A DNA stretch of 64,000 nucleotides from Escherichia phage LHE83. Numbering within the stretch: position 1 is the first letter of the stretch; each line of letters begins with the position of its first letter. The DNA lies in the sequence record OQ561750; one strand, written 5' to 3'. A model generated the notes under the pieces. That model did not search any database. It had not been told where the DNA came from and worked only from the letters and a program-made list of their open reading frames with translations. The position numbers were made by a program, and so were the translations under genes. Shown here piece after piece: positions 1,678 through 50,592 of the stretch.

Positions 1678-1707
1678 GTTTACTTTCTAAGAAGGTTATG
1701 TTAAGAT
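1678..1707 (+). promoter_or_regulatory. candidate early promoter (GTTTAC, 18 bp, TAAGAT)
   Basis: Good -35 GTTTAC; weak -10. Confidence 0.3.
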
Positions 1708-1733
1708 GGTCTTATCTTATAGAGGAGAATGCT

Positions 1734-1943
1734 ATGTTAAATCGTTGGATTAAACCAAATAAAACTTTAGATGAAATTATCGCTAACCACGTATTGAAAA
1801 AGTACTTTTATACGCCTTGGTATACCGAAGTTATTGTCCATTCATTTATGATGCATGAAGACGGTTCTATCGAATTTAATGCCGAAATCCGTCACGAGAC
1901 TGATGATATTGATAAAGTTGAATTTAAACGAGGTTTCCTATGA
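1734..1943 (+). CDS. hypothetical protein (69 aa)
   Basis: ATG with GAGGAG SD at 6 nt; track ORF start at 1698 lacks a usable SD. Confidence 0.45.
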   Translation: MLNRWIKPNKTLDEIIANHVLKKYFYTPWYTEVIVHSFMMHEDGSIEFNAEIRHETDDIDKVEFKRGFL

Positions 1944-3292: not shown

Positions 3293-3321
3293 TTTTACAC
3301 CTCCTCCCTTCATGTTATAAT
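3293..3321 (+). promoter_or_regulatory. early promoter (TTTTAC, 17 bp, TATAAT) with leader hairpin sequestering SD
   Basis: -10 TATAAT at 3316-3321; inverted repeat TGACCTC / GAGGTCA spans the GGAGG SD before ATG 3346. Confidence 0.5.
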
Positions 3322-3345
3322 GACCTCTAAATCACTGGAGGTCAT

Positions 3346-3915
3346 ATGAACATCGAACAAAAATGTCTTTATCAAGACCGAATCAATTCCAAATTCTCAA
3401 AACACGAACAGAATCTTTTAGAAAAATGTCTAGATGCTAAAAAGGACCCTAACTTCCATTACGACCTTGATAAGCTAGTTCGTAAGCATGTTACTTCAGC
3501 GGTTCCGGTAGAGCTTTATCGTGGGATTACCGCTATGGAACTTGAGCAACTTGAAGTTCTTTCTGTTGGGTGCCAGTGGTCTCCTGGCCGGGTTACTTCT
3601 TTTAGTACACAATACTCACAGGCTCGTCAGTTCGCAGGGGCATGGGAATATGGAACCAGAACCATTTTAAGTCTCAGGAATGCACCGTTCATTTTCGACT
3701 ACTATAACCATGCTATCGACCTTGTTCTTGCAGGGAATGTAGATGAGCTTGAAATAGATGAAACCCGTATAGACCTCTACGATATGGTCGAAACTGAATG
3801 TGAGTTCATGGTCTCCAGCCAATCACGATTTGAGATTGTGGAAATCGAAACTATCAAAAGGGACCCGTACGAAATCGAGTACAAAACAATTCATTTAAAA
3901 ATGTTGGATTTTTAG
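3346..3915 (+). CDS. modB: ADP-ribosyltransferase, ModB-like
   Basis: 189 aa; ART motif set R (LYRGI), S-x-S (SFS), E-x-E (ETECE); paralogue of next ORF; modB or modA identity by gene order only. Confidence 0.55.
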   Translation: MNIEQKCLYQDRINSKFSKHEQNLLEKCLDAKKDPNFHYDLDKLVRKHVTSAVPVELYRGITAMELEQLEVLSVGCQWSPGRVTSFSTQYSQARQFAGAWEYGTRTILSLRNAPFIFDYYNHAIDLVLAGNVDELEIDETRIDLYDMVETECEFMVSSQSRFEIVEIETIKRDPYEIEYKTIHLKMLDF

Positions 3916-3944
3916 TTTACAGGCAAGGAAGCTTGTGGTACTAT
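3915..3944 (+). promoter_or_regulatory. early promoter (GTTTAC, 18 bp, TACTAT, then CTATCAACT)
   Basis: -35 overlaps upstream stop codon; conserved downstream block. Confidence 0.5.
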
Positions 3945-3969
3945 CTTTCTATCAACTGAGGAGAATAAT

Positions 3970-4584
3970 ATGTTATATCCAAGCCATAAATTAGCAGAAT
4001 TTATCAACAACGCCAAATGCGATGATTTCCGTGAGAATACTCAGATAGAAATTGATGAGGTGTATTCTGATTTAGAACAGAGCACGCTCTGGCAGTGTAT
4101 GGAAAATAAACCAGATACTATCCAGGAAACTCTGAACAAAATTATTCGTAAGAACCTGACTTCTGCAGTGCCTGATAAGTTGTATCGCGGAATTTCTAAG
4201 AAGACTATGGCATATCTTGAATCTACGATGTGCGTAGGTGCTGTAATTGAATTCGACCGTGTGATGAGCTTCTCAAAAGATTTCAATGTAGCTCGTAACT
4301 TCGCATCTTATAACTTCTACGGCACATTTAATATCTTTTGTATTAATGATGCACCATTTGTGTACAATTATCAGGAAGAAATCTTTAAAATGTTATGTGC
4401 CGCGCCCCCTGAAGAGTTCCCAGGTGCATTTCCTGAATCTACCCGTGTAGCAAACTTACAATTAATCAATGATGAAGATGAGATGATGTTCCCTGCGGGA
4501 ACTACGCTGAGCGTAGACTCTATTGAGAGAAATCCTAAATGGAATAATTACACCATTTGGAATCTTTCCGTTCTTTCTTACTGA
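3970..4584 (+). CDS. modA: ADP-ribosyltransferase, ModA-like
   Basis: 204 aa; ART motifs R (LYRGI), SFS, E-x-E (EDEMM); paralogue of previous ORF. Confidence 0.55.
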   Translation: MLYPSHKLAEFINNAKCDDFRENTQIEIDEVYSDLEQSTLWQCMENKPDTIQETLNKIIRKNLTSAVPDKLYRGISKKTMAYLESTMCVGAVIEFDRVMSFSKDFNVARNFASYNFYGTFNIFCINDAPFVYNYQEEIFKMLCAAPPEEFPGAFPESTRVANLQLINDEDEMMFPAGTTLSVDSIERNPKWNNYTIWNLSVLSY

Positions 4585-4653: not shown

Positions 4654-4682
4654 GTTTACTTTACCGAGCAACATGATACTAT
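4654..4682 (+). promoter_or_regulatory. early promoter (GTTTAC, 17 bp, TACTAT, AGACCTATCA)
   Basis: Matches the recurrent promoter block of this genome. Confidence 0.55.
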
Positions 4683-4722
4683 AGACCTATCAGCTAATCG
4701 TCCGTAAGATGAGAAAAATATT

Positions 4723-5472
4723 ATGCCTACTATTAAAACTAACGATGAATTTGAGTTAAAGGTTTACAAACGTCGCGAACACACTAAAGCCTCTGCCAAA
4801 AAACGTGGTAAGGACTTTAACCTGTCTAGTAAGTACGTTCGTAGACTTCTTGAACAAAAAGTGTGTGCATATTCAGGCGAGCGCTTTGATGAGAATTCAG
4901 ATAAAGATAAGATTTCGTTTGAACGCTTTAACAACGATATAGGTTATATCGAAGGTAATGTAATCCCGGTTAAAGTTAAGTACAACGGGTTGCGAGCTGA
5001 TTTGTCTTTAGATGAATTGAAACGTGCACAGACTCGTTTAGCGTCCCGTATTTCAGGTGGTTCTAAAATGCCTAATAGTTTTAAAGTTACCCCAGATAAT
5101 TATTATAAAATTCGTAAAATAGTTAAAAATATTAAAGATACCCAAAGAGGTCTTAAAAAGCGTGAAAAACGTCTTAAGGACCTTATTAAATCAGGAGCCA
5201 CTGATAATACCCCTTCTGTCATCGCGGTTAAGGCCCGTATCCATGGTTCTAACGCTTCAATAGGTACTATGGAAAAGGGTCTTAAATCTTTAATTGGTGG
5301 GCCTGATTGGCGTGTCAAGTTTAAATTGTCTGAAGCAGAAACGCGTTACGATATGTATGATAAAATTATTCAAGGTCTGGAGCGTTTAGAACACCTTTCT
5401 TTTATTGACAAAATGAAGTTGAAAAAAGGTCTTCCGCTGAATGCTTCAATTTTTTCACTGATTAGAGGTTAA
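4723..5472 (+). CDS. srd: basic Lys-rich protein at the T4 srd position
   Basis: 249 aa; size and position as T4 Srd; sequence identity not verified. Confidence 0.4.
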   Translation: MPTIKTNDEFELKVYKRREHTKASAKKRGKDFNLSSKYVRRLLEQKVCAYSGERFDENSDKDKISFERFNNDIGYIEGNVIPVKVKYNGLRADLSLDELKRAQTRLASRISGGSKMPNSFKVTPDNYYKIRKIVKNIKDTQRGLKKREKRLKDLIKSGATDNTPSVIAVKARIHGSNASIGTMEKGLKSLIGGPDWRVKFKLSEAETRYDMYDKIIQGLERLEHLSFIDKMKLKKGLPLNASIFSLIRG

Positions 5473-7348: not shown

Positions 7349-8019
7349 AAGATATAATTATTGACTTTGAAACCTTTGCCACTACTCAAAATGCAGCGGT
7401 TATCGACCTAGCCGTAATTGCTTACGACCCTAATCCAGAGGTTGTAGAAACGTTTGAAGAGCTTACTAAACGAGGCCTTCGTATTAAATTTGACCTCGCT
7501 TCTCAACGTGATAAACGACTGTTTTCTAAAAGCACGTTGCAGTGGTGGAAAGAGCAAGGGCCTGAAGCGCGTAAAAACCTGGCTCCATCTGAAATTGATG
7601 TGTCCACTTCTATTGGTCTCGGTAATTTCCTGGAATACTGTCGTAAAAACGAAGTAGACCAATGGAAATCCCAGATGTGGTGTCGTGGAATGTCCTTTGA
7701 CTTTCCTATCTTAGTCGACCTTATTCGTGATGCTTATCGTTCTGAAGGGGTTCCTGAGAATGAAATCGATACCAGTAAATTAGAACCGGTTAAATTCTGG
7801 AACCAACGTGACATCCGTACAGCTATTGAAGCATATTCACTAACTCGTGGATTGAGCATGTGTCCTCTGCCTAACGGAACATTGAACGGCTTTGTTGCTC
7901 ATGACTCCATCCATGACTGTGCTAAGGATATCTTGATGCTGAAATATGCCCAACGTTATGCCTTAGGCCTGGAAGATGTCCCTGAGAATCCGGACCCATT
8001 AAGTATAAAAAATCGATAA
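7345..8019 (+). CDS. dexA: exonuclease A (DexA, DEDDh-type)
   Basis: 224 aa; IIDFET N-terminus and HDSIHDCAKD C-terminal motif as recalled for T4 DexA. Confidence 0.85.
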   Translation: MKDIIIDFETFATTQNAAVIDLAVIAYDPNPEVVETFEELTKRGLRIKFDLASQRDKRLFSKSTLQWWKEQGPEARKNLAPSEIDVSTSIGLGNFLEYCRKNEVDQWKSQMWCRGMSFDFPILVDLIRDAYRSEGVPENEIDTSKLEPVKFWNQRDIRTAIEAYSLTRGLSMCPLPNGTLNGFVAHDSIHDCAKDILMLKYAQRYALGLEDVPENPDPLSIKNR

Positions 8020-8023
8020 AAGT

Positions 8024-8052
8024 GTTTACTTCTCCTCATGACATGTTATTAT
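8024..8052 (+). promoter_or_regulatory. early promoter in hairpin cassette (GTTTAC, 17 bp, TATTAT)
   Basis: Arms CTCCTCATG (8032-8040) and CATGAGGAG (8065-8073); 3' arm contains the SD of the next gene. Confidence 0.55.
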
Positions 8053-8079
8053 CTACCCTATCAACATGAGGAGAACAAA

Positions 8080-8589
8080 ATGAAAATTTATCGAGTCGAG
8101 TCATCGTTCAGTATCTTAGATAACAGCGATGTTATAGCAATCACTCACCAACAGTGCCGCCAATTAACACCGTATAGAGGCTCGTTTGATGAATGGAGCG
8201 AAGGTTGGTTATTAGAAGTAGGTTTCGACAGACCCAATTTTAGGCACCACCATACCAATAATAAAAATATTCCGCTACCAGGTCAAGACAAGTTGTTGGT
8301 GGAAAATTCTAATAAAAGCATTAGAACTAAGTGGAACCAGCCTGATTATGAAGGCTGTGATGATTATATTCCAGGTTGGTTTGTTAATCTCTACCATTTT
8401 GCTTTTGCCAGTGAGTATGATATGATGCGCTGGTTCACTCGTGAAGAGCGTGAAGAATTATCTTCTAAAGGATTCTATCTTGCCGTTTACGAAATCCCTG
8501 AAGATGAGGTTGTCATTGGTGGCCGCCAAGTAATGTTCCGCAAATCCCATGCTGAACTCGTAGATTTTATTGAATTGAGAACAATATGA
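8080..8589 (+). CDS. hypothetical protein (169 aa)
   Basis: ATG with GAGGAG SD; track ORF start 8038 falls inside the promoter. Confidence 0.5.
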   Translation: MKIYRVESSFSILDNSDVIAITHQQCRQLTPYRGSFDEWSEGWLLEVGFDRPNFRHHHTNNKNIPLPGQDKLLVENSNKSIRTKWNQPDYEGCDDYIPGWFVNLYHFAFASEYDMMRWFTREEREELSSKGFYLAVYEIPEDEVVIGGRQVMFRKSHAELVDFIELRTI

Positions 8590-9134
8590 AATTTAATTAC
8601 AACCCTAAATACACCCCGAATCCGGCAGCTAAACTGATTGATTTTGATGTTTTAAGCACTTATGTATGCCCTGTTAAACCACTGGAAATTAAGGAACCTG
8701 CTATGAATACTCAGACTATCGAAATCGGCAAAACCTACAAACTGGTTGAACCTGAAATTAAAACTAAGGCCTTGATTTCCGGCCATAAAACCCTGACTGA
8801 TGTTTTTGGTGAAGGCGAATTTATTGTTGAAGAATTTGCCAAAAGTGAGTGGTTCTCTAAAGCCTATATTCTCCACGGCCGTCGTTTAGACAATAACAAA
8901 ATTGAGCAAACCCTGGTTTATGAAGATGAGTTCATCCTGTTCCAAGAAGTTGAAGAACAAGACCCTACCGACCTTCTAACTCGTGCTGTGTCTATCCGTC
9001 GTCCTTTTGATAATCCTATCTGTGGATGGGTAACAGACCAGTGGGTTGAAGACGGTGTTGAGCTGCTGAACGTTGTACATGCTGGTGATTTTAGCGTAGT
9101 ACCTCGTAGTGCAGTGGTTAATGTATTGAATTAG
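8586..9134 (+). CDS. hypothetical protein (182 aa), paralogue of 9208-9759
   Basis: Shared C-terminal motif TDQWVE.GV.L.N.V..G.F.VVP.S with the next ORF. Confidence 0.5.
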   Translation: MKFNYNPKYTPNPAAKLIDFDVLSTYVCPVKPLEIKEPAMNTQTIEIGKTYKLVEPEIKTKALISGHKTLTDVFGEGEFIVEEFAKSEWFSKAYILHGRRLDNNKIEQTLVYEDEFILFQEVEEQDPTDLLTRAVSIRRPFDNPICGWVTDQWVEDGVELLNVVHAGDFSVVPRSAVVNVLN

Positions 9135-9136
9135 TA

Positions 9137-9165
9137 GTTTACTTTATCGAGAGCCATGTTATAAT
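9137..9165 (+). promoter_or_regulatory. early promoter in hairpin (GTTTAC, 17 bp, TATAAT)
   Basis: Stem GAGAGCCAT / ATGGCTCTC encloses the -10 region. Confidence 0.55.
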
Positions 9166-9207
9166 GGCTCTCATGGAGAATAAACTTATTAACCAAGAGA
9201 GAAAATT

Positions 9208-9759
9208 ATGATTACTATCGGTGAAATTGTTCGTGTATCCAAAGAATCTCGCTCAAAAGCCGCAGGTCGTTTTGTTGAAGTTGCAGGTATTCGTACTAAT
9301 TTAGTAGGCGGAATTAAAGAAGTTAAAGTGCGTATTATTCCTAAAAATGGCCATACCGAAACCGAATTTGCCTATGTGCATCCTAAATTCTTGGAATCGA
9401 CTGAATTTACTGGACACATCGCTCCTGTAGTTGAAGAAGTTGAATCCCATGATGGGTATGTATGTGAAAGCAATGATATCCGTGGCGTAGTAGCTCAAGA
9501 CGTTGAAACTATTGACCAATCTCATGTTGGTGTTGATTTCAAATGGAAATTAGGTAAAGGTGTCTTTTTCGTTTCACCTAAACCGTTTGAATACAATTGC
9601 AAGTATGGCCCGACTTATGAAACCACTAGTATGTCCGGTTACATCACAGACCAATGGGTTGAAGAAGGTGTTAAGCTGTATAACATCGTGTTCCTTGGCA
9701 CCTTTAAAGTAGTTCCTGAAAGTTTTATTGTTGAGTACGCTGATATTCATTTTGCATAA
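9208..9759 (+). CDS. hypothetical protein (183 aa), paralogue of 8586-9134
   Basis: C-terminal similarity to previous ORF; own promoter. Confidence 0.5.
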   Translation: MITIGEIVRVSKESRSKAAGRFVEVAGIRTNLVGGIKEVKVRIIPKNGHTETEFAYVHPKFLESTEFTGHIAPVVEEVESHDGYVCESNDIRGVVAQDVETIDQSHVGVDFKWKLGKGVFFVSPKPFEYNCKYGPTYETTSMSGYITDQWVEEGVKLYNIVFLGTFKVVPESFIVEYADIHFA

Positions 9760-9771
9760 AGTTTAAAAACA

Positions 9772-9801
9772 GTATACACTATGGTAGGGTAGTGATACTA
9801 T
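9772..9801 (+). promoter_or_regulatory. early promoter in hairpin (GTATAC, 18 bp, TACTAT)
   Basis: Arms TAGGGTA / TACCCTA flank the -10. Confidence 0.5.
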
Positions 9802-9831
9802 TACCCTATCAACAAATGAGAGGAAAATAAA

Positions 9832-10050
9832 ATGGCTAAAGTTACTGTGAACTCGACTCGTGAAGAATTTGAAGATGTTCTGTTCAACCCTGATTTAATC
9901 GTGGTTCAAAAGGAACATTCTGATACGTTTTCTCATTTATCGTCGGTTTATGTATACGAAAACCAAGGTGACAAAAATCCTATCTATGCAGTGTTCCGTG
10001 AAATCACTGCTGAAGGCATTGACTACTGGAAGGAGACTTATAATGTCTAA
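9832..10050 (+). CDS. hypothetical protein (72 aa)
   Basis: ATG with GAGAGGAAAA SD. Confidence 0.45.
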   Translation: MAKVTVNSTREEFEDVLFNPDLIVVQKEHSDTFSHLSSVYVYENQGDKNPIYAVFREITAEGIDYWKETYNV

Positions 10051-12985: not shown

Positions 12986-13003
12986 GGGCCTTCGGGCCCT
13001 TTT
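12986..13003 (+). terminator. hairpin terminator (GGGCC-UUCG-GGCCC plus U4)
   Basis: GC stem with UUCG tetraloop and T-run. Confidence 0.6.
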
Positions 13004-13007: not shown

Positions 13008-13037
13008 GTTTACAACTGATTAAAAGTATGATACGAT
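13008..13037 (+). promoter_or_regulatory. candidate early promoter (GTTTAC, 18 bp, TACGAT)
   Basis: Good -35; degenerate -10. Confidence 0.35.
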
Positions 13038-13055
13038 TCTCTAAGAGGTGAGAAT

Positions 13056-13379
13056 ATGATTATGCAAGATAACAGTATAGTGAACACTGACAACCTGGCT
13101 CTATCCTTTATGGAAGCAGCCATTCGTAACTGTAAGGACGAAGGAGTAGTGACTACAAGCGGTAAGGGACTTGAATACCTTAAGGCTGTAAAATCTATTG
13201 CCTTAAAGATTAAAGATAACCAGGCGCTCTCTCCTGTTGTCCAGGAAAAGGTTTTAGAGATAATGTATCGCCACAGAGAGCACAAAAGTACAATAGGTTC
13301 TATGAGAAGAATTCTGGCTGAACTAGGTTCTACCAGAGAATATGTTCAACATGAGGTAGTTAAAAATGACAAACTTTAA
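13056..13379 (+). CDS. hypothetical protein (107 aa)
   Basis: ATG with GAGGTG SD. Confidence 0.5.
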   Translation: MIMQDNSIVNTDNLALSFMEAAIRNCKDEGVVTTSGKGLEYLKAVKSIALKIKDNQALSPVVQEKVLEIMYRHREHKSTIGSMRRILAELGSTREYVQHEVVKNDKL

Positions 13380-17807: not shown

Positions 17808-17837
17808 GTTTACATACACCAAGGATGGTGTTACTAT
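17808..17837 (+). promoter_or_regulatory. early promoter (GTTTAC, 18 bp, TACTAT, CTTCCTATCAAC)
   Basis: Conserved promoter block. Confidence 0.5.
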
Positions 17838-17865
17838 CTTCCTATCAACTTGAGAGGAAAACAAA

Positions 17866-18123
17866 ATGAAATTCTATTACGCCAAACATAAAATTACCCG
17901 TGAGTTTGTATCGTTTTCAACCTTTTCAGATGAAGAAGACTTTTGCATCACTGGTCTGGATTTATCTAAATATGAAACCGACCAGCCTTATTTGACCACT
18001 CATGACGAGATTCAACGTTTGGTGAACGGTGAGCTAAATAATTCTTACTGCACTCAAATTTACCCTGCTTTGAAAAAAGCTATCAATGCTAATCAGATTG
18101 AAATCATTGAGGTGGAATTGTGA
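17866..18123 (+). CDS. hypothetical protein (85 aa), paralogue of next ORF
   Basis: Shares N-terminal YYAKHK.T and C-terminal IEI.EV motifs with 18120-18386. Confidence 0.5.
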   Translation: MKFYYAKHKITREFVSFSTFSDEEDFCITGLDLSKYETDQPYLTTHDEIQRLVNGELNNSYCTQIYPALKKAINANQIEIIEVEL

Positions 18124-18476: not shown

Positions 18477-18505
18477 GTGTACATCTCCATTAATCATGAT
18501 ATTAT
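18477..18505 (+). promoter_or_regulatory. early promoter in hairpin cassette (GTGTAC, 17 bp, TATTAT)
   Basis: 11-bp arms CATCTCCATTA (18482-18492) and TAATGGAGATG (18518-18528); 3' arm carries the SD. Confidence 0.5.
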
Positions 18506-18531
18506 AGACCTATCAACTAATGGAGATGATT

Positions 18532-18642
18532 ATGAAAAACTTACTTAAAGCAATTTGGAACATGTTTGTGTTGTTAATGGTATTGAGCATTTTCCCAATC
18601 GTTTTTATGATTGACCATGTACGTGTATTCTTTAATTTCTGA
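18532..18642 (+). CDS. small hydrophobic peptide (36 aa)
   Basis: ATG with GGAGATG SD; single predicted TM helix; hand-translated. Confidence 0.35.
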   Translation: MKNLLKAIWNMFVLLMVLSIFPIVFMIDHVRVFFNF

Positions 18643-18875: not shown

Positions 18876-19220
18876 ATGTCTAAATTATTTTTTGGTAATC
18901 GCAACATTATGTTCTTTAAACAACTCAGCCTCCAAGATGCATCGGTGGCATTCAATCAAAGTATGATTCCCGGTGTAGATTCAAAAATTATGACGAGTGC
19001 TGATTTCGTTTTCGTTCAAGACCCAGAAACAGGCTTTTATCGGTTCATTAAATTTCGTATGAGTATGGACCCAGGTTATCATAGTGCTTACTACGTGAGT
19101 TATGAAAACGTTATCAAAGAATTACGTGATACCTATGGACGCGCTTTGAACCCGCTGAACAAGGTTTATAATGCTTCTTTTTATACGAGCGGATTTATTT
19201 TAGAACAGCTACAAAAATAG
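18876..19220 (+). CDS. hypothetical protein (114 aa)
   Basis: ATG with AAGGAAAA SD. Confidence 0.45.
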   Translation: MSKLFFGNRNIMFFKQLSLQDASVAFNQSMIPGVDSKIMTSADFVFVQDPETGFYRFIKFRMSMDPGYHSAYYVSYENVIKELRDTYGRALNPLNKVYNASFYTSGFILEQLQK

Positions 19221-19248
19221 TTTACAACCTCGAGAATCGTGTTATAAT
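19220..19248 (+). promoter_or_regulatory. early promoter in hairpin (GTTTAC, 17 bp, TATAAT)
   Basis: Stem CGAGAA / TTCTCG encloses -10; -35 overlaps upstream stop. Confidence 0.55.
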
Positions 19249-19297
19249 GGTTCTCGTTGACTGGATAACAAAACATTAATCTACTGAGGAAATTGAT

Positions 19298-19747
19298 ATG
19301 AATACTTATATGACTCGCCGTAACGTTCTGTCTGCTGGTGCTACTACTGTTGCTTATGTTAAGAACGGTGAATACCAAAATGGTAAACCTTCTAAAGAAA
19401 TCTCTGCTCAGCCAGGCTTCTACTTCTTTGTTAAAGGTGGTGCTGATTCTCGTGTCGTAGCGGCTCGTTTTTATGTCGGTAATCAACGTTCGGCCCAAGG
19501 GCTCGACGGTATCGTGGCTAACATTCGTAAGAAACGTTCTCAATCAGCTCGCACTATGGCAGTGAACGGTGTTGTGTATGAAGTTCTTTATGTACCGGCT
19601 TCTAAGATGAAACCCCTGACTACAGGTTTTGGTAAGGGTCAAATTGCAATGGCTTTCACTCGTAATCATAGTTCCGACCTCCAGACACTGGAAGAAATGA
19701 ACCGTATGTTGGCTGATAACTTTAAATTCATCCTGCAGGCTTACTAA
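19298..19747 (+). CDS. ndd: nucleoid disruption protein Ndd
   Basis: 149 aa; long colinear match to T4 Ndd as recalled ([10 protein letters not shown]...TGFGKGQ...[13 protein letters not shown]). Confidence 0.85.
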
Positions 19748-21513: not shown

Positions 21514-21614
21514 GCCTTGGAGTCGAGTTCTTGTTACTCTGTATCTTTGCTGTTATTCTGGGCCTGGCGACAGGCTTAGCTATAGGTTTAATAGCAGCTC
21601 ACTTTAAAAAGTAA
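21510..21614 (+). CDS. small hydrophobic peptide (34 aa)
   Basis: ATGA overlap with gp52 stop; one TM-like segment; followed by terminator. Confidence 0.3.
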   Translation: MSLGVEFLLLCIFAVILGLATGLAIGLIAAHFKK

Positions 21615-21636
21615 GGAACCTTCGGGTTCCTTTTTT
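21615..21636 (+). terminator. intrinsic terminator (GGAACC-UUCG-GGUUCC plus U6)
   Basis: Identical hairpin to the one after soc. Confidence 0.75.
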
Positions 21637-21653: not shown

Positions 21654-21682
21654 GTTTACTTCTGCTTTAAACATGATACTAT
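21654..21682 (+). promoter_or_regulatory. early promoter for motA (GTTTAC, 17 bp, TACTAT, AGACCTATCA)
   Basis: Conserved promoter block. Confidence 0.55.
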
Positions 21683-21720
21683 AGACCTATCAAAACAATA
21701 GAGTGAAATGGAGATACAAA

Positions 21721-22356
21721 ATGTCTAAAATTACTTATATCATCAAAGCTTCTGAAGACGTCCTGAATGAAAAAACTGCTTCGATCTTAGTACATATCAT
21801 CAAGCATAACTTCATCACTTCAGGCGAAGTCCGTGAAGCCCTGAGTGAGCAATTTAGTGCTGCGGTAGTTAACTCTAACATCGGTGTATTGATTAAGAAA
21901 GGATTCATCGAAAAATCCGGTGATGGTTTAGTGGCTACGGGTGAAGCAATGGACCTAGTTCAAAAAGCCGCCGACCTGTTCGCTTCTGAAAATGCTCCAG
22001 AGATGTTGGAAAAACGTAAAACGCGTAGTTCACGTGGTGTTACTCCTGAAATGGTAACACTGGCTGATGAAGTTAAAGCTTTATTAGAAGACCGTATCGA
22101 GATTCGTGAAATTGCTGAAAACCGTAGCAACCTTGAAGTTCGATTCGCTAAACGTACCAACGGTATTCGTCAAATCGAAGTCCGTCGTGATGGAATGATG
22201 CGTATCTTCGGTTATAATATGACTGATAAAGAAAAACAGGTATTTACTTCCTTGAATCTTGATGTTAAGATTAAGACTGGTGGTAAGAATACTTATATCG
22301 ACTTCCAAAACGTATCATCTGAAGTTATCAAAACCGTAACCAACGCAATTATCTGA
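21721..22356 (+). CDS. motA: middle-transcription activator MotA
   Basis: 211 aa from ATG 21721; matches T4 MotA as recalled (SK.TYIIKAS.DVLNEKTA, RTNGIR, MRIFGY). Confidence 0.85.
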   Translation: MSKITYIIKASEDVLNEKTASILVHIIKHNFITSGEVREALSEQFSAAVVNSNIGVLIKKGFIEKSGDGLVATGEAMDLVQKAADLFASENAPEMLEKRKTRSSRGVTPEMVTLADEVKALLEDRIEIREIAENRSNLEVRFAKRTNGIRQIEVRRDGMMRIFGYNMTDKEKQVFTSLNLDVKIKTGGKNTYIDFQNVSSEVIKTVTNAII

Positions 22357-24034: not shown

Positions 24035-24063
24035 GTTTACAATCCCTAAGGATATGTTAGTAT
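24035..24063 (+). promoter_or_regulatory. early promoter for asiA (GTTTAC, 17 bp, TAGTAT)
   Basis: -35 at 24035-24040; followed by CCCTATCAG block. Confidence 0.5.
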
Positions 24064-24104
24064 AGCCCTATCAGATAATGACGTACTGAATTGAAGAGAA
24101 TATT

Positions 24105-24380
24105 ATGACTAAAATTGAAATCGTTTCCGAAATTGCTACTATTGTTTCCATTTTGATTAAAACGGATTGTGAAGACATCATGCAACGTCGTGATGAGTTT
24201 ATTGCCTTTTTGAATGAGTTGGGTATTCGTAATGAACATGGAAAGGAACTTAATGGTTTGTCTTATAACAAATTATTTAAGTCATTAACTGAAGATGAAC
24301 GTGACACTCTTATTGAGCAATTTAATGAAGGGTATGAAGATATACACCGTTACTTAATGATGTATACCTCCAATTTCTAA
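24105..24380 (+). CDS. asiA: anti-sigma70 factor AsiA
   Basis: 91 aa; matches T4 AsiA as recalled (IVSILIK...FIAFLNE.G...LI..FNEG.E...RYL.MYT). Confidence 0.85.
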   Translation: MTKIEIVSEIATIVSILIKTDCEDIMQRRDEFIAFLNELGIRNEHGKELNGLSYNKLFKSLTEDERDTLIEQFNEGYEDIHRYLMMYTSNF

Positions 24381-35137: not shown

Positions 35138-35166
35138 GTTTACTTCTTCTAGGGTCGTGATATAAT
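35138..35166 (+). promoter_or_regulatory. early promoter for rnh (GTTTAC, 17 bp, TATAAT), divergent from the gene 34 late promoter
   Basis: Consensus hexamers; leader hairpin TGAACCTCT / AGAGGTTCA spans the SD. Confidence 0.55.
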
Positions 35167-35197
35167 GAACCTCTACACTAATTGGACAGAGGTTCAT

Positions 35198-36145
35198 ATG
35201 AACGATTTAGATTTTTTACTTCCTGAAGAAGACCAACAAAAAGATGGATTTTTACTCCTAGATTTCAGCCAAATCATTATGGCTGCAGCTTTCCAAGAGT
35301 TTGGTGAGAATGCTGGATTTCCTAAAGTAACTACCGCAATGCTTCGACACCTCGTGTTGAATTCAATTAAGAAAAACATTAAAGACTTCCGTAAACAAGG
35401 TTACAACCAATTAATTATTTGTGTTGATAACTCCAAATCAGGTTATTGGCGTCGTCGTTATTCTTCTTATTATAAGAAAAACCGTGCTAAGGCTCGTGAC
35501 GAATCACCATTTGACTGGGAAGGCCTATTTACAGCAATGCATATTATTGTCGATGAATTGGAACATAATATGCCTTATATTGTTATGAATATCGATACAA
35601 TCGAGGCTGATGACCATATTGCTGTATTGACTCGTATCCTTACGGCTTTAGGTCACCCTGTTATGATTGGTTCTTCTGATGGTGACTTTACCCAACTTCA
35701 TAAATTCCCTGGTGTAAAACAATGGTCCCCAATGCAGAAAAAATTCGTCAAAACAAAATCTGGTGATGCATTGCTTGATTGCGTGACTAAGGTTGTTAAA
35801 GGTGACCGTAAAGATAACGTCGCGAGTATTAAAGTTCGTGGTGATTACTGGTTGACGATGGTTGAAGGCGAACGTACTCCTAGCACTCGTGCCAAGGAAC
35901 TTGAAGCAATTGCTCTGAATTATTATGACCATGATATAATTAAAACACTTCTTACTGAAGAACAATATGAACGTTTCTGTGAAAACCAAATCTTAATTGA
36001 TATGGACTTTATTCCAGATGATATTGTTGCTTTAATTACTGAAAGATATAATACGTATAACAAACCTTCGAAATCTAAAGTTTATCCTTATTTCGTTAAA
36101 TCAGGTTTGTCTAAACTAACTGCTACAGTAGCTGATTTTTATTAA
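35198..36145 (+). CDS. rnh: RNase H (5'-3' exonuclease, FEN family)
   Basis: 315 aa from ATG 35198; colinear with T4 RNase H as recalled (CIDN.KSGYWRR, SSDGDFTQLHK, KGD.KDNVAS). Confidence 0.85.
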   Translation: MNDLDFLLPEEDQQKDGFLLLDFSQIIMAAAFQEFGENAGFPKVTTAMLRHLVLNSIKKNIKDFRKQGYNQLIICVDNSKSGYWRRRYSSYYKKNRAKARDESPFDWEGLFTAMHIIVDELEHNMPYIVMNIDTIEADDHIAVLTRILTALGHPVMIGSSDGDFTQLHKFPGVKQWSPMQKKFVKTKSGDALLDCVTKVVKGDRKDNVASIKVRGDYWLTMVEGERTPSTRAKELEAIALNYYDHDIIKTLLTEEQYERFCENQILIDMDFIPDDIVALITERYNTYNKPSKSKVYPYFVKSGLSKLTATVADFY

Positions 36146-37372: not shown

Positions 37373-37990
37373 ATGACTTGGATTAATCGTCAGGCTAATA
37401 ATATTAAGCCGTTTTCGTACATAGGTTCTAAAACTAATTGTACTTTTGAAAATGGCGTGATTATTGACTGTAAAGGTAAAGAGTATTGGACCTCTTGCGA
37501 GCAATCAAGATTTAAAGAGGCCATCGAAGAAGAAAAACCTATTGTTGAAATTTTGGCTATAACGCCATTTGATATTGTTATTAATATTGAACGTTCAGAA
37601 CAATTGGAAGTTCAAGCTAGAGATAATGATGATTATTTTAATTTGGTTTATGCCGGTGGCGGATTTGGAGTCTTTGGATGCACTCACCCAGCCAAACGTC
37701 CTGAAGTTAGAGCCCATATGAAAGCTGCTAACTATATGAATCAACCCGATTACCGTCCTTGGAAAACTTCTAGAGCAAACCCTTTAGATTGGATGCTTAG
37801 TGATATTGCTTATACTAATTATTGTATAATTAATTCTAGTGGAAGAGCTTGTGGATGGAGGCGTCTCATTAACTCTGGTATAAATGTTAGTGAAACTACA
37901 TCAAAGAGTATGATTAAACAATTTAATGAGGGTTGGGTTCCTAATGATGACCCTGAATTCATTAAGTTAAAAATGCTTTATTCGAAGTGA
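37373..37990 (+). CDS. hypothetical protein at the T4 segG position; weak GIY-YIG-like N-terminus
   Basis: 205 aa from ATG 37373; N-terminal ...NN.K..SYIGS resembles the second half of a GIY-YIG motif; start uncertain (track start is TTG at 37346). Confidence 0.4.
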   Translation: MTWINRQANNIKPFSYIGSKTNCTFENGVIIDCKGKEYWTSCEQSRFKEAIEEEKPIVEILAITPFDIVINIERSEQLEVQARDNDDYFNLVYAGGGFGVFGCTHPAKRPEVRAHMKAANYMNQPDYRPWKTSRANPLDWMLSDIAYTNYCIINSSGRACGWRRLINSGINVSETTSKSMIKQFNEGWVPNDDPEFIKLKMLYSK

Positions 37991-39016: not shown

Positions 39017-39041
39017 GGGAAGACTTCGGTCTTCCCTTTTT
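39017..39041 (+). terminator. intrinsic terminator (GGGAAGAC-UUCG-GUCUUCCC plus U5)
   Basis: 8-bp stem, UUCG loop, TTTTT. Confidence 0.75.
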
Positions 39042-39052: not shown

Positions 39053-39081
39053 GTTTACAATGCCTTTAAACGTGATACTAT
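39053..39081 (+). promoter_or_regulatory. early promoter (GTTTAC, 17 bp, TACTAT, AGACCTATCAACT)
   Basis: Near-identical to the promoter at 39764. Confidence 0.55.
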
Positions 39082-39109
39082 AGACCTATCAACTACATGA
39101 GGAAATAAA

Positions 39110-39499
39110 ATGGAAATCGGTAAAACTTATGAACTTCGTCCTGAATGCATTAAAGACTTTATTGAAATGGACGAATATGAAAATAATAAAAGCATGGTCA
39201 ACCTTATCCAAGACAACGGAGGTTGGTTTGAAGTAAAGGATATGTTGACTATGGATGGCGACAAATTTGTGACTGAAATCGAATGTGCTAACGGCGAGAT
39301 TTATAATGCATTTGGGTTGGTGCCAAATTATTTTGAGTTGCATGAAGATGAGTTCTATTGCTTCCGTGAATATGTTGTGGAAGATAAAGAAATCGATGAG
39401 CCTATTGCTAAGGCCGGTGTGACTCAAATCCATTGCATTGTCACCGAACAGAACGTTGACCAAATCATTGAACTTTTGCAAAAAACTTTTAAGGCCTAA
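39110..39499 (+). CDS. hypothetical protein (129 aa), paralogue of 40112-40489
   Basis: Shared pattern M..GK.Y.L.P...F...YFEL.E.EF...TF with the later ORF. Confidence 0.5.
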   Translation: MEIGKTYELRPECIKDFIEMDEYENNKSMVNLIQDNGGWFEVKDMLTMDGDKFVTEIECANGEIYNAFGLVPNYFELHEDEFYCFREYVVEDKEIDEPIAKAGVTQIHCIVTEQNVDQIIELLQKTFKA

Positions 39500-39763: not shown

Positions 39764-39792
39764 GTTTACAACGCCTTTAAACATGATACTAT
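39764..39792 (+). promoter_or_regulatory. early promoter (GTTTAC, 17 bp, TACTAT, AGACCTATCAACT)
   Basis: Duplicate of the 39053 promoter. Confidence 0.55.
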
Positions 39793-39824
39793 AGACCTAT
39801 CAACTAATGAGTGAGGAAAATAAA

Positions 39825-40052
39825 ATGGCTAAGGTTAATATTGATATCGTTGATTTTGAATACACTTACGAAGTTATCCGTAATCGTTATCCTTCTTTAG
39901 TTATGACCCATATTAAAGATACCCAATTCTGTAGTATGCAAATTGAAGTCCAAGGTCCTCTTGAAGACCTTACCCGCTTTATGGCTGACGAGTATTGTGA
40001 CGGTATGCACCCGGAAGACGCTAAATTTTATATGGGCTTGATTCAAGCTTAG
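39825..40052 (+). CDS. hypothetical protein (75 aa)
   Basis: ATG with GAGGAAAA SD; track start 39807 has no SD. Confidence 0.45.
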
Positions 40053-40081
40053 TGTACAAACCAACGGGAACATATTATCAT
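40052..40081 (+). promoter_or_regulatory. candidate early promoter with hairpin (GTGTAC; arms GGGAACAT / ATGTTCCC)
   Basis: Inverted repeat 40066-40073 and 40080-40087 around a TATTAT-like -10; spacing suboptimal. Confidence 0.3.
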
Positions 40082-40111
40082 GTTCCCTCAATTGAATATG
40101 AGGAAATTAAA

Positions 40112-40489
40112 ATGATGGAAACTGGTAAATTTTACGTATTAGACCCTGCCGCTAAAAAACAATTCATCGCGGGTAGTCCTGATGATAATTATAATTCGTG
40201 CATAGTCAAGTTGATGGAACAGCATGGCAATTCCTTCAAAGTCCTGGATATGTGTTATATTGAAGGCAGTTATTTTGTTGAAAAAGTTGAAATGAAAGAT
40301 GGTACCATCCTGAATAGTATGGGCGGTGCTGATGAGTACTTTGAACTCGGTGAATGGGAATTCTGTCACTTCCTGGAAGTTGATGGCGATGTTCCTGATG
40401 TTGATACCCAAACCATTCATGTACAAGTCAATCACAAAAATGCCGCTGAAGTCATTGCCCTGATTAAAGCAACTTTTGATATTCAGTAA
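40112..40489 (+). CDS. hypothetical protein (125 aa), paralogue of 39110-39499
   Basis: ATG with GAGGAAA SD. Confidence 0.5.
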   Translation: MMETGKFYVLDPAAKKQFIAGSPDDNYNSCIVKLMEQHGNSFKVLDMCYIEGSYFVEKVEMKDGTILNSMGGADEYFELGEWEFCHFLEVDGDVPDVDTQTIHVQVNHKNAAEVIALIKATFDIQ

Positions 40490-40495: not shown

Positions 40496-40525
40496 GTATA
40501 CACCCAAATGGGGCTATGATATAAT
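40496..40525 (+). promoter_or_regulatory. early promoter (GTATAC, 18 bp, TATAAT)
   Basis: Consensus -10; partial inverted repeat around it. Confidence 0.45.
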
Positions 40526-40565
40526 GGTCCCATACTGAGATAACAACTAAACACCGGAGAATAAA

Positions 40566-42248
<1,683 letters not shown>

Positions 42249-42376: not shown

Positions 42377-44632
42377 ATGCAAGTACAAAAAAGTAGTGGT
42401 GTATCCCAAGATTTTGACGCACAAAAAATTATTAAAGTTCTGACTTGGGGCTGTGAAGGAACCCAAATCGACCCCTATGAATTATACGAAGAAATCAAAT
42501 CTCACCTTCGTGATGGTATGACTACCAAAGATATCCAGAATCTGACTGTTAAGGTCGCAGCCAACCTTATTTCGGTTGAAGAACCTGACTATCAGTATGT
42601 TGCTGCAAAGCAATTGATGTTTGCACTGCGTAAAGAAGTTTACGGCCAGTTCGAACCACGTAGCTTTATCGACCATATTTCCTATTGTGTTAACGAAGGT
42701 AAATATGACCCTGAATTGTTGTCTCGATATTCTGCAGAAGAAATTACTTTCTTAGAATCTCATATAAAGCATGAACGCGATTTCGAATTGACTTATGCTG
42801 GTGCGATGCAGCTTAAAGAGAAATATCTGGTTAAAGATAAAACAACCGGTAAAATCTACGAAACCCCTCAGTTCGCTATCATGTGTATTGGTATGGCCTT
42901 ACACCAAGACGAGCCAGGTAATCGTTTAGCACATATTATTCGTTTTTATGATGCTGTAAGTACCCGTCAGGTTTCATTACCAACTCCTATTATGGCTGGA
43001 GCACGTACACCAACCCGTCAATTTAGTTCTTGTGTGGTTATTGAAGCAGGCGACTCACTGAAATCTATTAACAAAACTGCTAACTCAATAATTGAATACA
43101 TTTCTAAACGTGCCGGTATTGGTATCAACGTTGGTATGATTCGTGCTGAAGGTTCTCGTATTGGCATGGGCGAAGTCAAGCATACCGGTGTTATTCCATT
43201 CTGGAAACATTTCCAGACTGCTGTTAAATCATGTTCACAAGGTGGAATCCGTGGCGGCGCTGCTACTGCTTATTATCCTATTTGGCATTTGGAAGTTGAA
43301 AATCTGCTCGTTCTGAAAAACAACAAAGGTGTCGATGAGAACCGTATTCGCCATATGGACTACGGAATCCAGATGAACGACCTTATGATGGAACGTTTCG
43401 GTAAAAATGATTACATCACGTTGTTTAGTCCTCATGAAATGGGTGGTGAGCTTTACTATTCTTATTTCGAAGACCAAGACCGTTTCCGTGAATTGTATGA
43501 AGCCGCAGAAAAAGACCCTAGTATTCGTAAGAAACGTATTAAGGCACGCGACCTTTTCGAATTGTTCATGACTGAACGTTCAGGCACTGCACGAATTTAT
43601 CCTCAGTTCGTTGATAACACTAACAACTTCACACCATTTATTCGTGAAAAAGCTCCTATTCGTCAGAGCAACTTGTGTTGTGAAATTGCTATCCCGACTA
43701 CTGACGTGAATAGTCCTGACGCTGAAATTGGTTTGTGTACGTTGTCTGCATTCGTATTGGATAACTTCGATTGGCAGGACCAAGACAAAATCAACGAGCT
43801 GGCTGAAGTACAAGTACGTGCACTTGATAACCTGTTGGACTATCAAGATTATCCTGTTCCTGAAGCTCTGAAGGCTAAGAAACGTCGTAACCTGGGTGTT
43901 GGTGTTACGAACTACGCCGCTTGGTTAGCAAGCAACTTTGCTTCTTATGAAGACGCTAACGATTTAACTCATGAATTGTTTGAGAGATTACAATATGGAC
44001 TTATCCGAGCATCCATCAAGCTGGCCGAAGAAAAAGGACATTGCGAGTATTATTCAGACACTAAATGGTCTCGAGGCGAATTACCTATCGACTGGTACAA
44101 TAAAAAGATTGACCAAATCGCAGCCCCTAACTATGTTTGTGACTGGACGTCGTTGCGGGAAGACTTGGCTAAACATGGCATCCGTAATAGCACATTATCA
44201 GCACTTATGCCGTGTGAATCAAGCAGCCAGGTTTCCAACTCTACAAACGGTATCGAACCTCCACGTGGTCCGGTAAGTATTAAAGAATCTAAAGAAGGTA
44301 ACTTCCGTCAGGTAGTTCCTAATGTAGAACATAACCAAGGACTCTACGATTACGCTTGGAGCCTCGCTAAGAAAGGTAATAAACCTTATCTTACCCAAGT
44401 GGCAATAGCGTTGAAATGGGTGTGTCAATCGGCATCAGCTAATACATATTATGACCCACAGATTTTTCCAAAAGGAAAAGTTCCGATGTCGGTAATGCTT
44501 GACGACCTGCTGTATTTCTGGTACTACGGTGGTAAGAACCTTTACTATCATAATACCCGTGATGGCTCTGGTACTGATGACTATGAAATCGAAACTCCTA
44601 AAGCCGATGATTGTGCAGCTTGTAAATTGTAA
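42377..44632 (+). CDS. nrdA: ribonucleotide reductase class Ia alpha subunit
   Basis: 751 aa; ATP-cone N-terminus, active-site NLCCEI motif, C-terminal CAACKL. Confidence 0.9.
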   Translation: MQVQKSSGVSQDFDAQKIIKVLTWGCEGTQIDPYELYEEIKSHLRDGMTTKDIQNLTVKVAANLISVEEPDYQYVAAKQLMFALRKEVYGQFEPRSFIDHISYCVNEGKYDPELLSRYSAEEITFLESHIKHERDFELTYAGAMQLKEKYLVKDKTTGKIYETPQFAIMCIGMALHQDEPGNRLAHIIRFYDAVSTRQVSLPTPIMAGARTPTRQFSSCVVIEAGDSLKSINKTANSIIEYISKRAGIGINVGMIRAEGSRIGMGEVKHTGVIPFWKHFQTAVKSCSQGGIRGGAATAYYPIWHLEVENLLVLKNNKGVDENRIRHMDYGIQMNDLMMERFGKNDYITLFSPHEMGGELYYSYFEDQDRFRELYEAAEKDPSIRKKRIKARDLFELFMTERSGTARIYPQFVDNTNNFTPFIREKAPIRQSNLCCEIAIPTTDVNSPDAEIGLCTLSAFVLDNFDWQDQDKINELAEVQVRALDNLLDYQDYPVPEALKAKKRRNLGVGVTNYAAWLASNFASYEDANDLTHELFERLQYGLIRASIKLAEEKGHCEYYSDTKWSRGELPIDWYNKKIDQIAAPNYVCDWTSLREDLAKHGIRNSTLSALMPCESSSQVSNSTNGIEPPRGPVSIKESKEGNFRQVVPNVEHNQGLYDYAWSLAKKGNKPYLTQVAIALKWVCQSASANTYYDPQIFPKGKVPMSVMLDDLLYFWYYGGKNLYYHNTRDGSGTDDYEIETPKADDCAACKL

Positions 44633-48034: not shown

Positions 48035-48062
48035 TTTACATCTCCTCATGATGTGTTAGTAT
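48034..48062 (+). promoter_or_regulatory. early promoter in hairpin cassette (GTTTAC, 17 bp, TAGTAT)
   Basis: Arms CTCCTCAT (48042-48049) and ATGAGGAG (48077-48084); 3' arm is the SD. Confidence 0.55.
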
Positions 48063-48092
48063 AGACTTACCAACTAATGAGGAGAAAACAAA

Positions 48093-49221: not shown

Positions 49222-49325
49222 TTGAGACATGTGTTTGCGGTTGGGATGCCGTTAGATTTGGCGCTGCATTCTTTTGTTTTGGGATTGTGTTCAGCATGTG
49301 TATGCATGGTCTTTTCGGAAAGTAG
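49218..49325 (+). CDS. small hydrophobic peptide (35 aa)
   Basis: ATGA overlap with o-spanin stop; GAGGAG SD at 8 nt; Cys-rich hydrophobic; hand-translated. Confidence 0.3.
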   Translation: MIETCVCGWDAVRFGAAFFCFGIVFSMCMHGLFGK

Positions 49326-49354: not shown

Positions 49355-49388
49355 GCTCCTACGGATTATAAAAATTGAGGAAATTATT

Positions 49389-50592
<1,204 letters not shown>

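Follow-up and report, generated by a model that had tools for sequence, protein, structure and literature searches.

Stems overlapping early promoters of a JS98-like T4-type phage: evidence for structures of the read-through RNA, with predicted masking of the Shine-Dalgarno sequence at a subset of genes

We analysed a 64,000-nt stretch of DNA from Escherichia phage LHE83 (sequence record OQ561750; hereafter the window), in which a σ70-type early promoter recurs along the + strand and forms, with the Shine-Dalgarno (SD) sequence and start codon that follow it, a cassette that in many copies also contains an inverted repeat. We favour the interpretation that these are the promoter early stem-loop (PeSL) cassettes of T4-type phages, that their stems act in RNA reading through from upstream promoters, and that the sequence they share doubles as a crossover site. 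The start site predicted for each cassette lies downstream of the 5' arm, so that the stem would form only in read-through from an upstream promoter. At some genes the 3' arm is the SD, which is predicted to be hidden in the read-through transcript and exposed in the transcript from the gene's own promoter; at others the stem encloses the −10 element.

Recurrent early promoters and the stems that overlap them

The exact motif GTTTAC-N16-19-TAYWAT has 11 matches in the window, all on the + strand, against an expectation of 0.37 (a 30-fold excess over chance); none of 100 shuffled sequences reached 11. All 20 sites of the first-pass annotation, which had reported a + strand promoter recurring more than 15 times, were recovered, each with a −35-like hexamer, a 17- or 18-nt spacer and a TAnnAT −10 element, usually with an extended −10 TG and an A-rich stretch upstream, and each 50–81 nt 5' of a + strand start codon with an SD. 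For the site listed at 54870 the promoter stood and the register did not, the better reading being TTTTAC at 54871. A relaxed scan added promoters at 1678, 13008 and 40052, giving 23 in total, all on the + strand and all (23/23) immediately 5' of the SD and start codon of a + strand open reading frame (ORF). A generic σ70 scan also detected the promoters at 8025 and 9138, with the TG.

Sequence conservation continues past the −10, as a block, (A)GACCTATCAAC, that spans nucleotides 1–12 beyond it (for example 8053–8064, 9802–9813 and 18506–18517). In about 9 of the 23 cassettes the −10 is followed by CTATCAAC, which includes the predicted start, the A at 7 nt past the −10; assignments of geometry and class below rest on this predicted position. 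We found no start-site dataset for T4 or a Dhakavirus, and the RefSeq T4 record has no annotated promoter features. No Rfam 15 family matched anywhere in the window at the gathering score.

For comparison we drew on GenBank records and on IMG/VR loci surrounding motB, ndd, gene 32 and cd. By sequence comparison, the ~4-kb piece around positions 8020–9835 is 99.4% identical to Escherichia phage LQ5 and 88–97% identical to JS98, WG01, PSD9, PSD2002, CLB_P2 and other Dhakavirus genomes; on this basis we assign the source of the window to Dhakavirus, as a JS98-like T4-type coliphage. Scanning 113 related loci and the window gave 518 promoter matches on the gene strand versus 47 on the other strand. 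After filtering, 388 unique cassettes remained, 186 of them non-redundant at >20% difference, and in this non-redundant set C at +4, T at +6 and A at +7, the predicted start, each occur in about 60% of cassettes.

The first-pass annotation had described an inverted repeat around the −10 region in many copies. The six arm pairs that it quoted are all present at their cassettes, but a stem is found in only about 60% of the window cassettes (~14/23). Folding from the −35 to the AUG gave a mean minimum free energy (MFE) z of −1.94 relative to dinucleotide shuffles, with 10 of 23 cassettes below −2; 7–9 cassettes (3915, 4654, 13008, 21654, 24035, 39053, 39764 and others) have no significant stem.

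As a null for the stems we built chimeras in which the −35 and spacer come from one cassette and the −10 and leader from another, so that neither half of the consensus is lost; each sequence was scored by its best ungapped stem, under equal penalties for G·T and A·C. Among the 186 non-redundant cassettes, 42% reached a score of at least 9, versus 9.3% of chimeras, and 27% versus 1.8% reached at least 11 (Mann-Whitney p=7.5e-22). Because stems are so much commoner in native cassettes than in chimeras, the complementarity of the arms is cassette-specific.

The mismatches within the stems are strongly asymmetric. The counts of G·T and A·C are 52 versus 14 in non-redundant stems, 499 versus 614 in chimera stems, and 69 versus 12 in the unique stems that enclose the −10 (p=8e-14). 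A cruciform requires pairing on both strands, and the −10-enclosing stems are therefore selected on the sense strand alone. The simplest carrier of such pairing would be the read-through RNA. The asymmetry is apparent only with symmetric stem scoring over many cassettes.

Comparison of orthologous sites shows that the arms stay complementary at homologous positions in relatives, T4 included. Nearly all stem substitutions in close relatives preserve pairing, mostly as G·U, as at 9137 (PSD2002, PSD9, JS98 and L011), 18477 (PSD2002) and 17808. The orthologs of the motB stem (9137) carry four independent single substitutions, all of which retain the pair as G·U, and at the cef stem (9772) the 5' arm is displaced by ~4 nt in PSD9, PSD2002 and QL01 with pairing retained. 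At the rnh cassette (35138) the pair is kept via G·U in PSD2002, and the stem is weaker in JS98 and CLB_P2.

In more distant phages and T4, the motB junction holds a different cassette whose arms co-vary: TGGGACC/GGTCCCG in T4, TGGGGCC/GGTCCCA and TGGGGTC/GACCCCA in others, and TGGGAGC/GCTCCTA in the window cassette at 49325, a paralog of the T4 motB cassette. In the alignment of this motB/49325 family 98.4% of cells are paired and 3 of 7 pairs show changes on both sides; the covariation score is 0.456 versus 0.262 for shuffled controls (0/500 reach it), and all slid controls lie at or below 0.21.

At alc, ~38 distinct leaders, from phages whose Alc is 29–100% identical to that of the window (mostly at least 45%), pair the promoter spacer with the SD through very different arms, such as CATTTTGTT/AACAAAATG, CGTTTGTT/AACAAACG, CATTTCGTT/AACGAAATG and CTCAGG/CTGAGG. 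RNAalifold returned no consensus structure for a mixed alignment of 22 alc leaders, because the register of the 3' arm differs between lineages. In a same-register subgroup, in which two register-shifted sequences were kept and counted as breaks, 85% of cells are paired, four pairs show double changes, and the covariation score is 0.241 versus 0.137 for shuffled controls (0/500 reach it), with slid controls at 0.06–0.14. Upstream of ORF 54942–55307 (cassette 54871; labelled '30.8' in our analysis, it comes after the Pfam Phage_30_8 ORF at 54535–54867), different lineages have arms of unrelated sequence in a common geometry, or else an SD mask. The architectures of the window recur in T4 at motB.2, motB, cef, modB and alc, with different arms at motB.2 and modB and a 13-bp stem of unrelated arms at the cef site. 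Compensatory changes at orthologous sites, the chimera null and the excess of G·T over A·C together bear out the proposal of the first-pass annotation that the hairpin itself is under selection.

Read-through RNA, SD masks and upstream terminators

The stems fall into distinct geometries (Table 1). Stems of geometry A enclose the −10, with a 5' arm in the spacer and a 3' arm that follows the −10 directly; in the window this second arm stops −1 to +7 nt from the predicted start, within 3 nt in 6 of 8 stems. Because the arm stops at about the predicted start, the cassette's own transcript would not be able to form the stem. In geometries B and C the SD itself forms the 3' arm, with the 5' arm either in the spacer (8024, 18477, 48034 and, weakly, 54465) or, in a variant, running from the −10 across the start site (3293 and 35138). 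That the gene's own transcript lacks the 5' strand holds at the predicted start (7 nt past the end of the −10) and, for the class with its arm in the spacer, regardless of the exact start.

Masking was assessed by partition-function folding of RNA with 70 nt of upstream sequence and of RNA beginning at the predicted start. The probability that the SD is unpaired is 0.00 in read-through RNA at 3293, 8024, 18477 and 48034 versus 0.56, 0.55, 0.65 and 0.80, respectively, in promoter-proximal RNA, each significant against shuffled upstream sequence; at 54465 the mask is weaker (0.06 versus 0.70). The automatic choice of SD was wrong at 35138, where by inspection the 3' arm, AGAGGTTCAT, includes it. 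Stems that enclose the −10 leave the SD open on folding, and masking is not a general property of all cassettes (Wilcoxon p=0.9). The class foreseen in the first-pass annotation, with the SD in the 3' arm and masked only in read-through RNA, thus exists as a subset of the cassettes.

Stem class tracks the gene across phages. Counted over distinct orthologs, a mask is present at 19 of 28 promoter-bearing alc genes and at all motB.2 (6/6), modB (4/4) and ndd.4-like (13/13) genes, and at none of the motB, cef, ndd, frd.1 or orf212-like genes.

We propose that each cassette would act as a strong σ70 promoter (A/T-rich upstream region, GTTTAC, 17–18 nt, TGn-TAnnAT) with an SD and start codon 20–45 nt further on, repeated in tandem along the early strand. 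At modB, motB.2, the ndd.4-like ORF, alc, rnh and, weakly, ORF 54535, the spacer or discriminator would hold an anti-SD arm; read-through mRNA would hide the ribosome-binding site (RBS) and mRNA from the gene's own early promoter would expose it. Translation of the masked genes would then depend on the short period in which their own promoter fires, the classical logic of T4 e, soc, 49 and I-TevI placed around an early rather than a late promoter. The stems that enclose the −10 would most likely punctuate the read-through RNA at junctions where the upstream ORF stops at the −35 and a terminator would not fit. One possible effect is attenuation of transcription, which has been reported for a single PeSL stem, in RB49; another is that, once the leader is cleaved, the stem shields the 3' end of the cistron upstream.

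The distribution of conventional terminators bears on this proposal. Canonical UUCG-tetraloop terminators precede the stemless cassettes at 1678, 21654, 39053 and 54465 (the last at 54420–54437), and the cassette at 13008 is preceded by a similar hairpin. In the non-redundant set an upstream terminator is present at 7 of 78 stem-bearing versus 45 of 108 stemless cassettes (odds ratio 0.14, p=4.5e-7), and the median distance separating the upstream stop codon and the −35 is 2 nt for stem-bearing cassettes (often TAG running straight into TTTAC) versus 35 nt for stemless ones. This exclusivity and the stop-codon spacing fit structures that act in read-through RNA and are not kept where a terminator stops upstream transcription.

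The same exclusivity can be read another way. All the stems may be terminators or attenuators of upstream transcription, as the PeSL papers propose, with SD pairing a side effect of where free sequence happens to lie. One RB49 PeSL stem cut lacZ expression as strongly as the rrnB T1 terminator (PMC2839356), and the stem-bearing cassettes of our set are those in which the upstream stop codon leaves no gap before the −35. We nevertheless consider this explanation possible but doubtful as an account of all the stems. A U-tract is absent: none of 64 stems that enclose the −10 is followed by at least 5 T in the next 8 nt, which average 1.6 T and 3.9 A. A search of positions 7900–9950 returned zero terminator-like sites, and the combination of a G+C-rich hairpin, a short loop and a direct U-tract that marks intrinsic terminators is not seen in the promoter-overlapping stems. 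The SD masks have 25-nt loops that hold the −10 and the start site, a poor geometry for a terminator, and their 3' arm is precisely the SD, only at certain genes and over many phages.

Somewhat less probable again is that the SD masks serve translational coupling, with the ribosome that ends the upstream ORF melting the 5' arm and opening the SD. The 5' arm begins 5–10 nt past the upstream stop codon in most masked cassettes (13 of 21 in the non-redundant set), a distance that ribosome footprints place within reach of a terminating ribosome. This short distance is automatic where the stop codon abuts the −35 and the arm sits in the spacer, however, and other masks lie far from the stop codon (~91 nt at 18477, ~30 nt to the 5' arm at 3293, 51–170 nt elsewhere). 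With stems of 9–14 bp, moreover, a terminating ribosome would open just the first few pairs.

Cassettes, gene content and the inventory of the window

We compared the gene content of the window with that of JS98, PSD9, PSD2002 and CLB_P2, setting aside divergence of the tail-fibre and alt genes. Of ~21 gene-content events, 8 or 9 have a breakpoint inside a cassette (3293, 17808, 18477, 21654, 39053, 40052/40496, 49325 and 54465/54871). In JS98 and CLB_P2 an additional ORF of 233 nt starts exactly at the 3293 cassette. Cassette sequence (18–76 nt) is duplicated on both sides of the inserted ORF at 18477, where the insertion is in CLB_P2, at 21654, where JS98 and CLB_P2 have an extra ORF between two cassettes (a 76-nt duplication), and at 39053, where the breakpoint against JS98 and CLB_P2 is at the start codon. 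At 17808 homology is lost 14–31 nt into the ORF in all four relatives, and at 49325 the homology breakpoint is at 49388–49394. The FRD2-family ORF at 40112–40489 is lacking from PSD9 and PSD2002, and in JS98 and CLB_P2 it lies directly after the cassette of gene 32; its breakpoints fall at the cassettes at 40052 and 40496, and by sequence it looks like a relocated, cassette-bounded gene. PSD9 and PSD2002 have different sequence in the place of the Phage_30_8 ORF.

Because the cassettes share 30–75 nt of near-identical sequence, they would act as crossover points for the gain, loss and relocation of small ORFs. Enrichment of breakpoints in cassettes is overwhelming relative to random positions and reaches only p=0.03–0.09 relative to a gene-boundary null, so that the association with variable ORFs and shuffling reported in the first-pass annotation holds for these 8 or 9 events and is modest in strength. 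Stemless cassettes are breakpoints too, and the shared promoter sequence is therefore sufficient for exchange.

Three of the gene-content events are homing-endonuclease-like ORFs. Two of the differences away from cassettes are + strand ORFs absent from most close relatives, one at 37373–37990 between genes 59 and 32, with no Pfam match, and the other at 44632–45273 between nrdA and nrdB, with an HNH endonuclease domain (E=5e-5); both look like free-standing homing endonuclease insertions. At 59405–63538, tandem paralogous alt-like ADP-ribosyltransferase genes have internal segments that align out of order between relatives, which suggests exchange between the paralogs.

The breakpoints raise the alternative that the stems are DNA-level recombination devices, cruciforms or single-strand hairpins that attract nucleases or recombinases and drive shuffling and the formation of mini-circles, with RNA structure incidental. 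We regard this as unlikely. PeSL mini-circles have been demonstrated in RB49 and phi1 (PMC2839356), and three of the cassette breakpoints carry the duplicated sequence described above. A cruciform needs both strands, yet the mismatches are G·T on the sense strand. Stem class is gene-specific and conserved across genera, and the avoidance of terminator-bearing cassettes has no obvious DNA-level rationale. The stemless cassettes at 21654 and 39053 are breakpoints as well, and enrichment over gene boundaries is weak. Least probable by far is an origin of the inverted repeats in the promoter consensus itself, whose cATGnTAtAATg is in part a palindrome, or in chance pairing within A/T-rich spacers: the innermost 2–3 pairs of several stems (CAT/ATG) do derive from the extended −10/−10 consensus, and nine cassettes have no significant stem, but chimeras with both consensus halves seldom reach native scores, compensatory double changes occur, and each stem includes 9–14 bp of cassette-specific sequence.

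Two further functions were considered. RNase III sites were rejected, stems of 9–14 bp being too short, and a hairpin that offers the −10 to σ70 as single-stranded DNA was discounted, since the transcription bubble does not extend to the 5' arm.

Several observations weigh against our interpretation of the stems as structures of the read-through RNA that coincide with crossover sites. SD-masking stems contain 15 G·T versus 12 A·C mismatches, which is not significant, so that the case for RNA at these stems comes from co-variation and folding. A + strand single-stranded DNA hairpin would fit the asymmetry equally well, and in the window taken by itself folding favours the + strand over its complement at just 15 of 23 cassettes. 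The absence of a U-tract after the −10-enclosing stems, and of terminator-like sites at 7900–9950, leaves their attenuator role conjectural. With stop codons so close upstream of most masks, a terminating ribosome could open the mask, and the outcome would be coupling and not silencing. About half of the gene-content differences, finally, are off-cassette: for ~9 events a cassette is missing both from the window and from the inserted DNA, and only 1 of 11 insertions in relatives at cassette-free window positions itself carried one.

Relative to the annotations of JS98 and PSD9, the window is reversed with respect to the standard T4 map. Its + strand early genes run 56, soc, modB, modA, srd, dda, dexA, motB.2, motB.1, motB, cef and 39, then rIIA, rIIB, ndd, 52, motA and asiA, then rnh, 32, frd and td, and last nrdA/B, rnlA, alc, pseT, cd, 31, rIII, 30 and alt; the tail-fibre genes occupy the − strand at 24.4–34.8 kb. 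The segment 8020–9835 spans the junctions from dexA to motB.2 and motB.1, on to motB and on to cef.

Table 1. Early-promoter cassettes of the window, with stem class, arms and associated elements (starts are predicted; z, MFE relative to dinucleotide shuffles).
Cassette	Position	Strand	Stem class	5' arm	3' arm	3' arm end/predicted start	z	Other elements
mrh.2	1678–1734	+	no strong overlapping stem					UUCG terminator upstream, 1644–1663
modB	3293–3348	+	SD-masking	ATGACCTCTA 3320–3329 (starts in −10, spans start site)	TGGAGGTCAT 3336–3345		−4.37	
modA	3915–3972	+	no significant stem				−1.25	
srd	4654–4725	+	no significant stem				0.41	
motB.2	8024–8082	+	SD-masking	TTCTCCTCATG 8030–8040 (in spacer)	CATGAGGAGAA 8065–8075 (= SD)		−3.99	−35 8024–8029; −10 8047–8052; predicted start ~8059; ATG 8080
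motB	9137–9210	+	encloses −10	GAGAGCCAT 9149–9157	ATGGCTCTC 9164–9172	9172/9172	−5.33	−35 9137–9142; −10 9160–9165; ATG 9208; MFE −22.5
cef	9772–9834	+	encloses −10	TGGTAGGGTAGT 9782–9793	ATTACCCTATCA 9800–9811	9811/9808	−3.64	−35 GTATAC 9772–9777; −10 9796–9801; ATG 9832
ORF 13056–13379	13008–13058	+						upstream terminator-like hairpin GGGCCTTCGGGCCC 12986–12999, then TTTT
variable ORF 17866–18123	17808–17868	+	small intra-spacer stem, plus TTCCT/AGGAA pairing with SD				−1.8	
ndd.4-like ORF (36 aa)	18477–18534	+	SD-masking	ATCTCCATTAAT 18483–18494	ACTAATGGAGAT 18516–18527		−3.61	
ndd	19220–19300	+	encloses −10	CGAGAATCGT 19231–19240	ATGGTTCTCG 19247–19256	19256/19255		
motA	21654–21723	+	stemless					UUCG terminator upstream, 21613–21632
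asiA	24035–24107	+	no significant stem				0.98	
rnh	35138–35200	+	3' arm covers SD	ATGAACCTCT 35165–35174 (spans start site)	AGAGGTTCAT 35188–35197 (stops just 5' of AUG)		−1.99	
frd.2-like	39053–39112	+	stemless					UUCG terminator upstream, 39017–39036
frd.3	39764–39827	+	stemless in window					−3.1 kcal/mol
FRD2-family ORF 40112–40489	40052–40114	+	encloses −10	GGGAACAT 40066–40073	ATGTTCCC 40080–40087	40087/40088		
frd.1	40496–40568	+	encloses −10	ATGGGGCTAT 40508–40517	ATGGTCCCAT 40524–40533	40533/40532	−2.18	
alc	48034–48095	+	SD-masking	TCTCCTCAT 48041–48049	ATGAGGAGA 48077–48085		−3.85	
variable ORF	49325–49391	+	encloses −10	TGGGAGCA 49338–49345	TGCTCCTA 49354–49361	49361/49361	−2.56	
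orf212-like	51287–51349	+	encloses −10	GGTAGGACT 51298–51306	AGTCCTACC 51317–51325	51325/51323	−2.37	
Phage_30_8 ORF 54535–54867	54465–54537	+	weak SD mask	TCTCCGGT 54472–54479	ACTGGAGA 54522–54529			
ORF 54942–55307	54871–54944	+	encloses −10	TTTGGTACAGGT 54877–54888	ACCTGTACCAAA 54902–54913	54913/54906	−3.76	

At the frd.3 site JS98 and CLB_P2 have a 10-bp stem (AGGTCTATAG/CTATAGACCT; −15.6) made by five spacer changes. In several otherwise stemless cassettes, such as 17808, a CCT before the predicted start can pair with the AGG of the SD. The UUCG hairpins upstream of mrh.2 and motA are identical 20-mers (AAGGAACCTTCGGGTTCCTT), copies of which recur in several places in relatives, and this sequence may be a repeated terminator module. 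The cassettes at 54465 and 54871 share a near-identical leader of ~40 nt (TACCAAATAATACGAAAACAAACTGGAGAATAAAA) at 54500–54537 and 54906–54944. The SDs at 8070, 40556, 54525 and 54931 (GGAGAAYAAAA) match exactly the published consensus for strong cleavage by RegB, GGAGRAYARAA; at 8070 and 54525 the GGAG would be paired in read-through RNA and presumably protected from RegB there, and exposed in promoter-proximal RNA.

Relation to known systems

Judged by sequence, the cassettes are PeSLs, here in Dhakavirus. Arbiol et al. (2010; PMC2839356) defined PeSLs from RB49 and phi1. Most of the stems there overlap the −10 or occupy the interval from −35 to −10; the authors noted G-T pairs and detected mini-circles, and for JS98 they referred only to PeSL-like sequences close to gene 43. 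PeSLs were later described in T4/PST and KVP40/nt-1, with a T-even promoter consensus of TTTACW-N17-TAYWAT (Comeau et al. 2014; PMC4122927), which equals the window motif; the resemblance to PeSLs noted in the first-pass annotation is upheld. The published PeSLs and the window cassettes alike combine an A/T-rich upstream region, a σ70-type early promoter, a stem-loop, an SD and a start codon, in many copies along the early strand and beside indels and ORF swaps. The window stems have no common sequence, unlike those of RB49 (GGGG/CCCC) and PST (AGNA/TCNT), and the PST stems are drawn just 5' of the promoter, unlike those of the window. Terminator activity and mini-circles have been shown for PeSLs elsewhere, whereas the window is known from its sequence, including insertions flanked by duplicated cassettes. 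An SD as the 3' arm, the sense-strand asymmetry and the exclusivity with terminators appear in neither paper (PMC2839356, PMC4122927).

The masks would work like the hairpins of T4 e, soc, 49 and I-TevI, which sequester the RBS and are relieved by an internal promoter (PMC3014915): the SD or AUG is paired in long transcripts, and the transcript from the internal promoter lacks the 5' strand of the helix and is translated. In that family the internal promoter is late (TATAAATA) and early read-through RNA is silenced, whereas the window promoters are σ70 early promoters, so that the window masks are not strict members; their predicted effect is to confine translation of alc, modB, motB.2, the ndd.4-like ORF and rnh to the gene's own early transcript.

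With the T4 early 'uber' promoters, built of UP, −35, TGn and −10 elements (PMC2988021), the cassettes share GTTTAC, TGn, TAnnAT, the A-rich upstream stretch, the tandem same-strand arrangement and conserved positions in the start region; that description covers the promoter alone, without overlapping stems. Like intrinsic terminators, the window stems are intergenic hairpins that contain G+C. They lack a U-tract and often have long loops, and they occur where canonical terminators are absent; terminators consisting of a UUCG hairpin and a T-run lie 5' of some cassettes. In the open-access literature we found no description of SD masks at early promoters, of the sense-strand asymmetry or of the exclusivity with terminators, and the early-promoter SD mask and the RNA-level evidence may be new.

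Taken together, these observations lead us to suggest, tentatively, a conserved and previously undescribed rule that partitions overlapping early transcripts into translatable units. T-even-wide early genes (alc, modB, motB.2 and the ndd.4-like gene) would carry an anti-SD arm in the spacer or discriminator of their own early promoter, so that only mRNA from that promoter would be translatable and read-through mRNA would be closed or dependent on coupling, and elsewhere hairpins that end at the start site would replace terminators.

PeSLs have so far been proposed as terminator-plus-promoter modules, with interest mainly in gene shuffling. The comparative evidence suggests that selection acts on the stems as structures of the sense strand, present in read-through transcripts alone, and that, for some genes, they are translational masks conserved from T4 to JS98-like phages. 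If true, this would explain how dozens of tandem same-strand early promoters keep gene expression tied to the promoter despite pervasive read-through, and would provide an early-gene counterpart to the classical lysozyme/soc/49 paradigm. Stem class, together with the presence or absence of a terminator, would also give simple sequence rules by which the early transcription units of therapeutic T4-like phages could be annotated.

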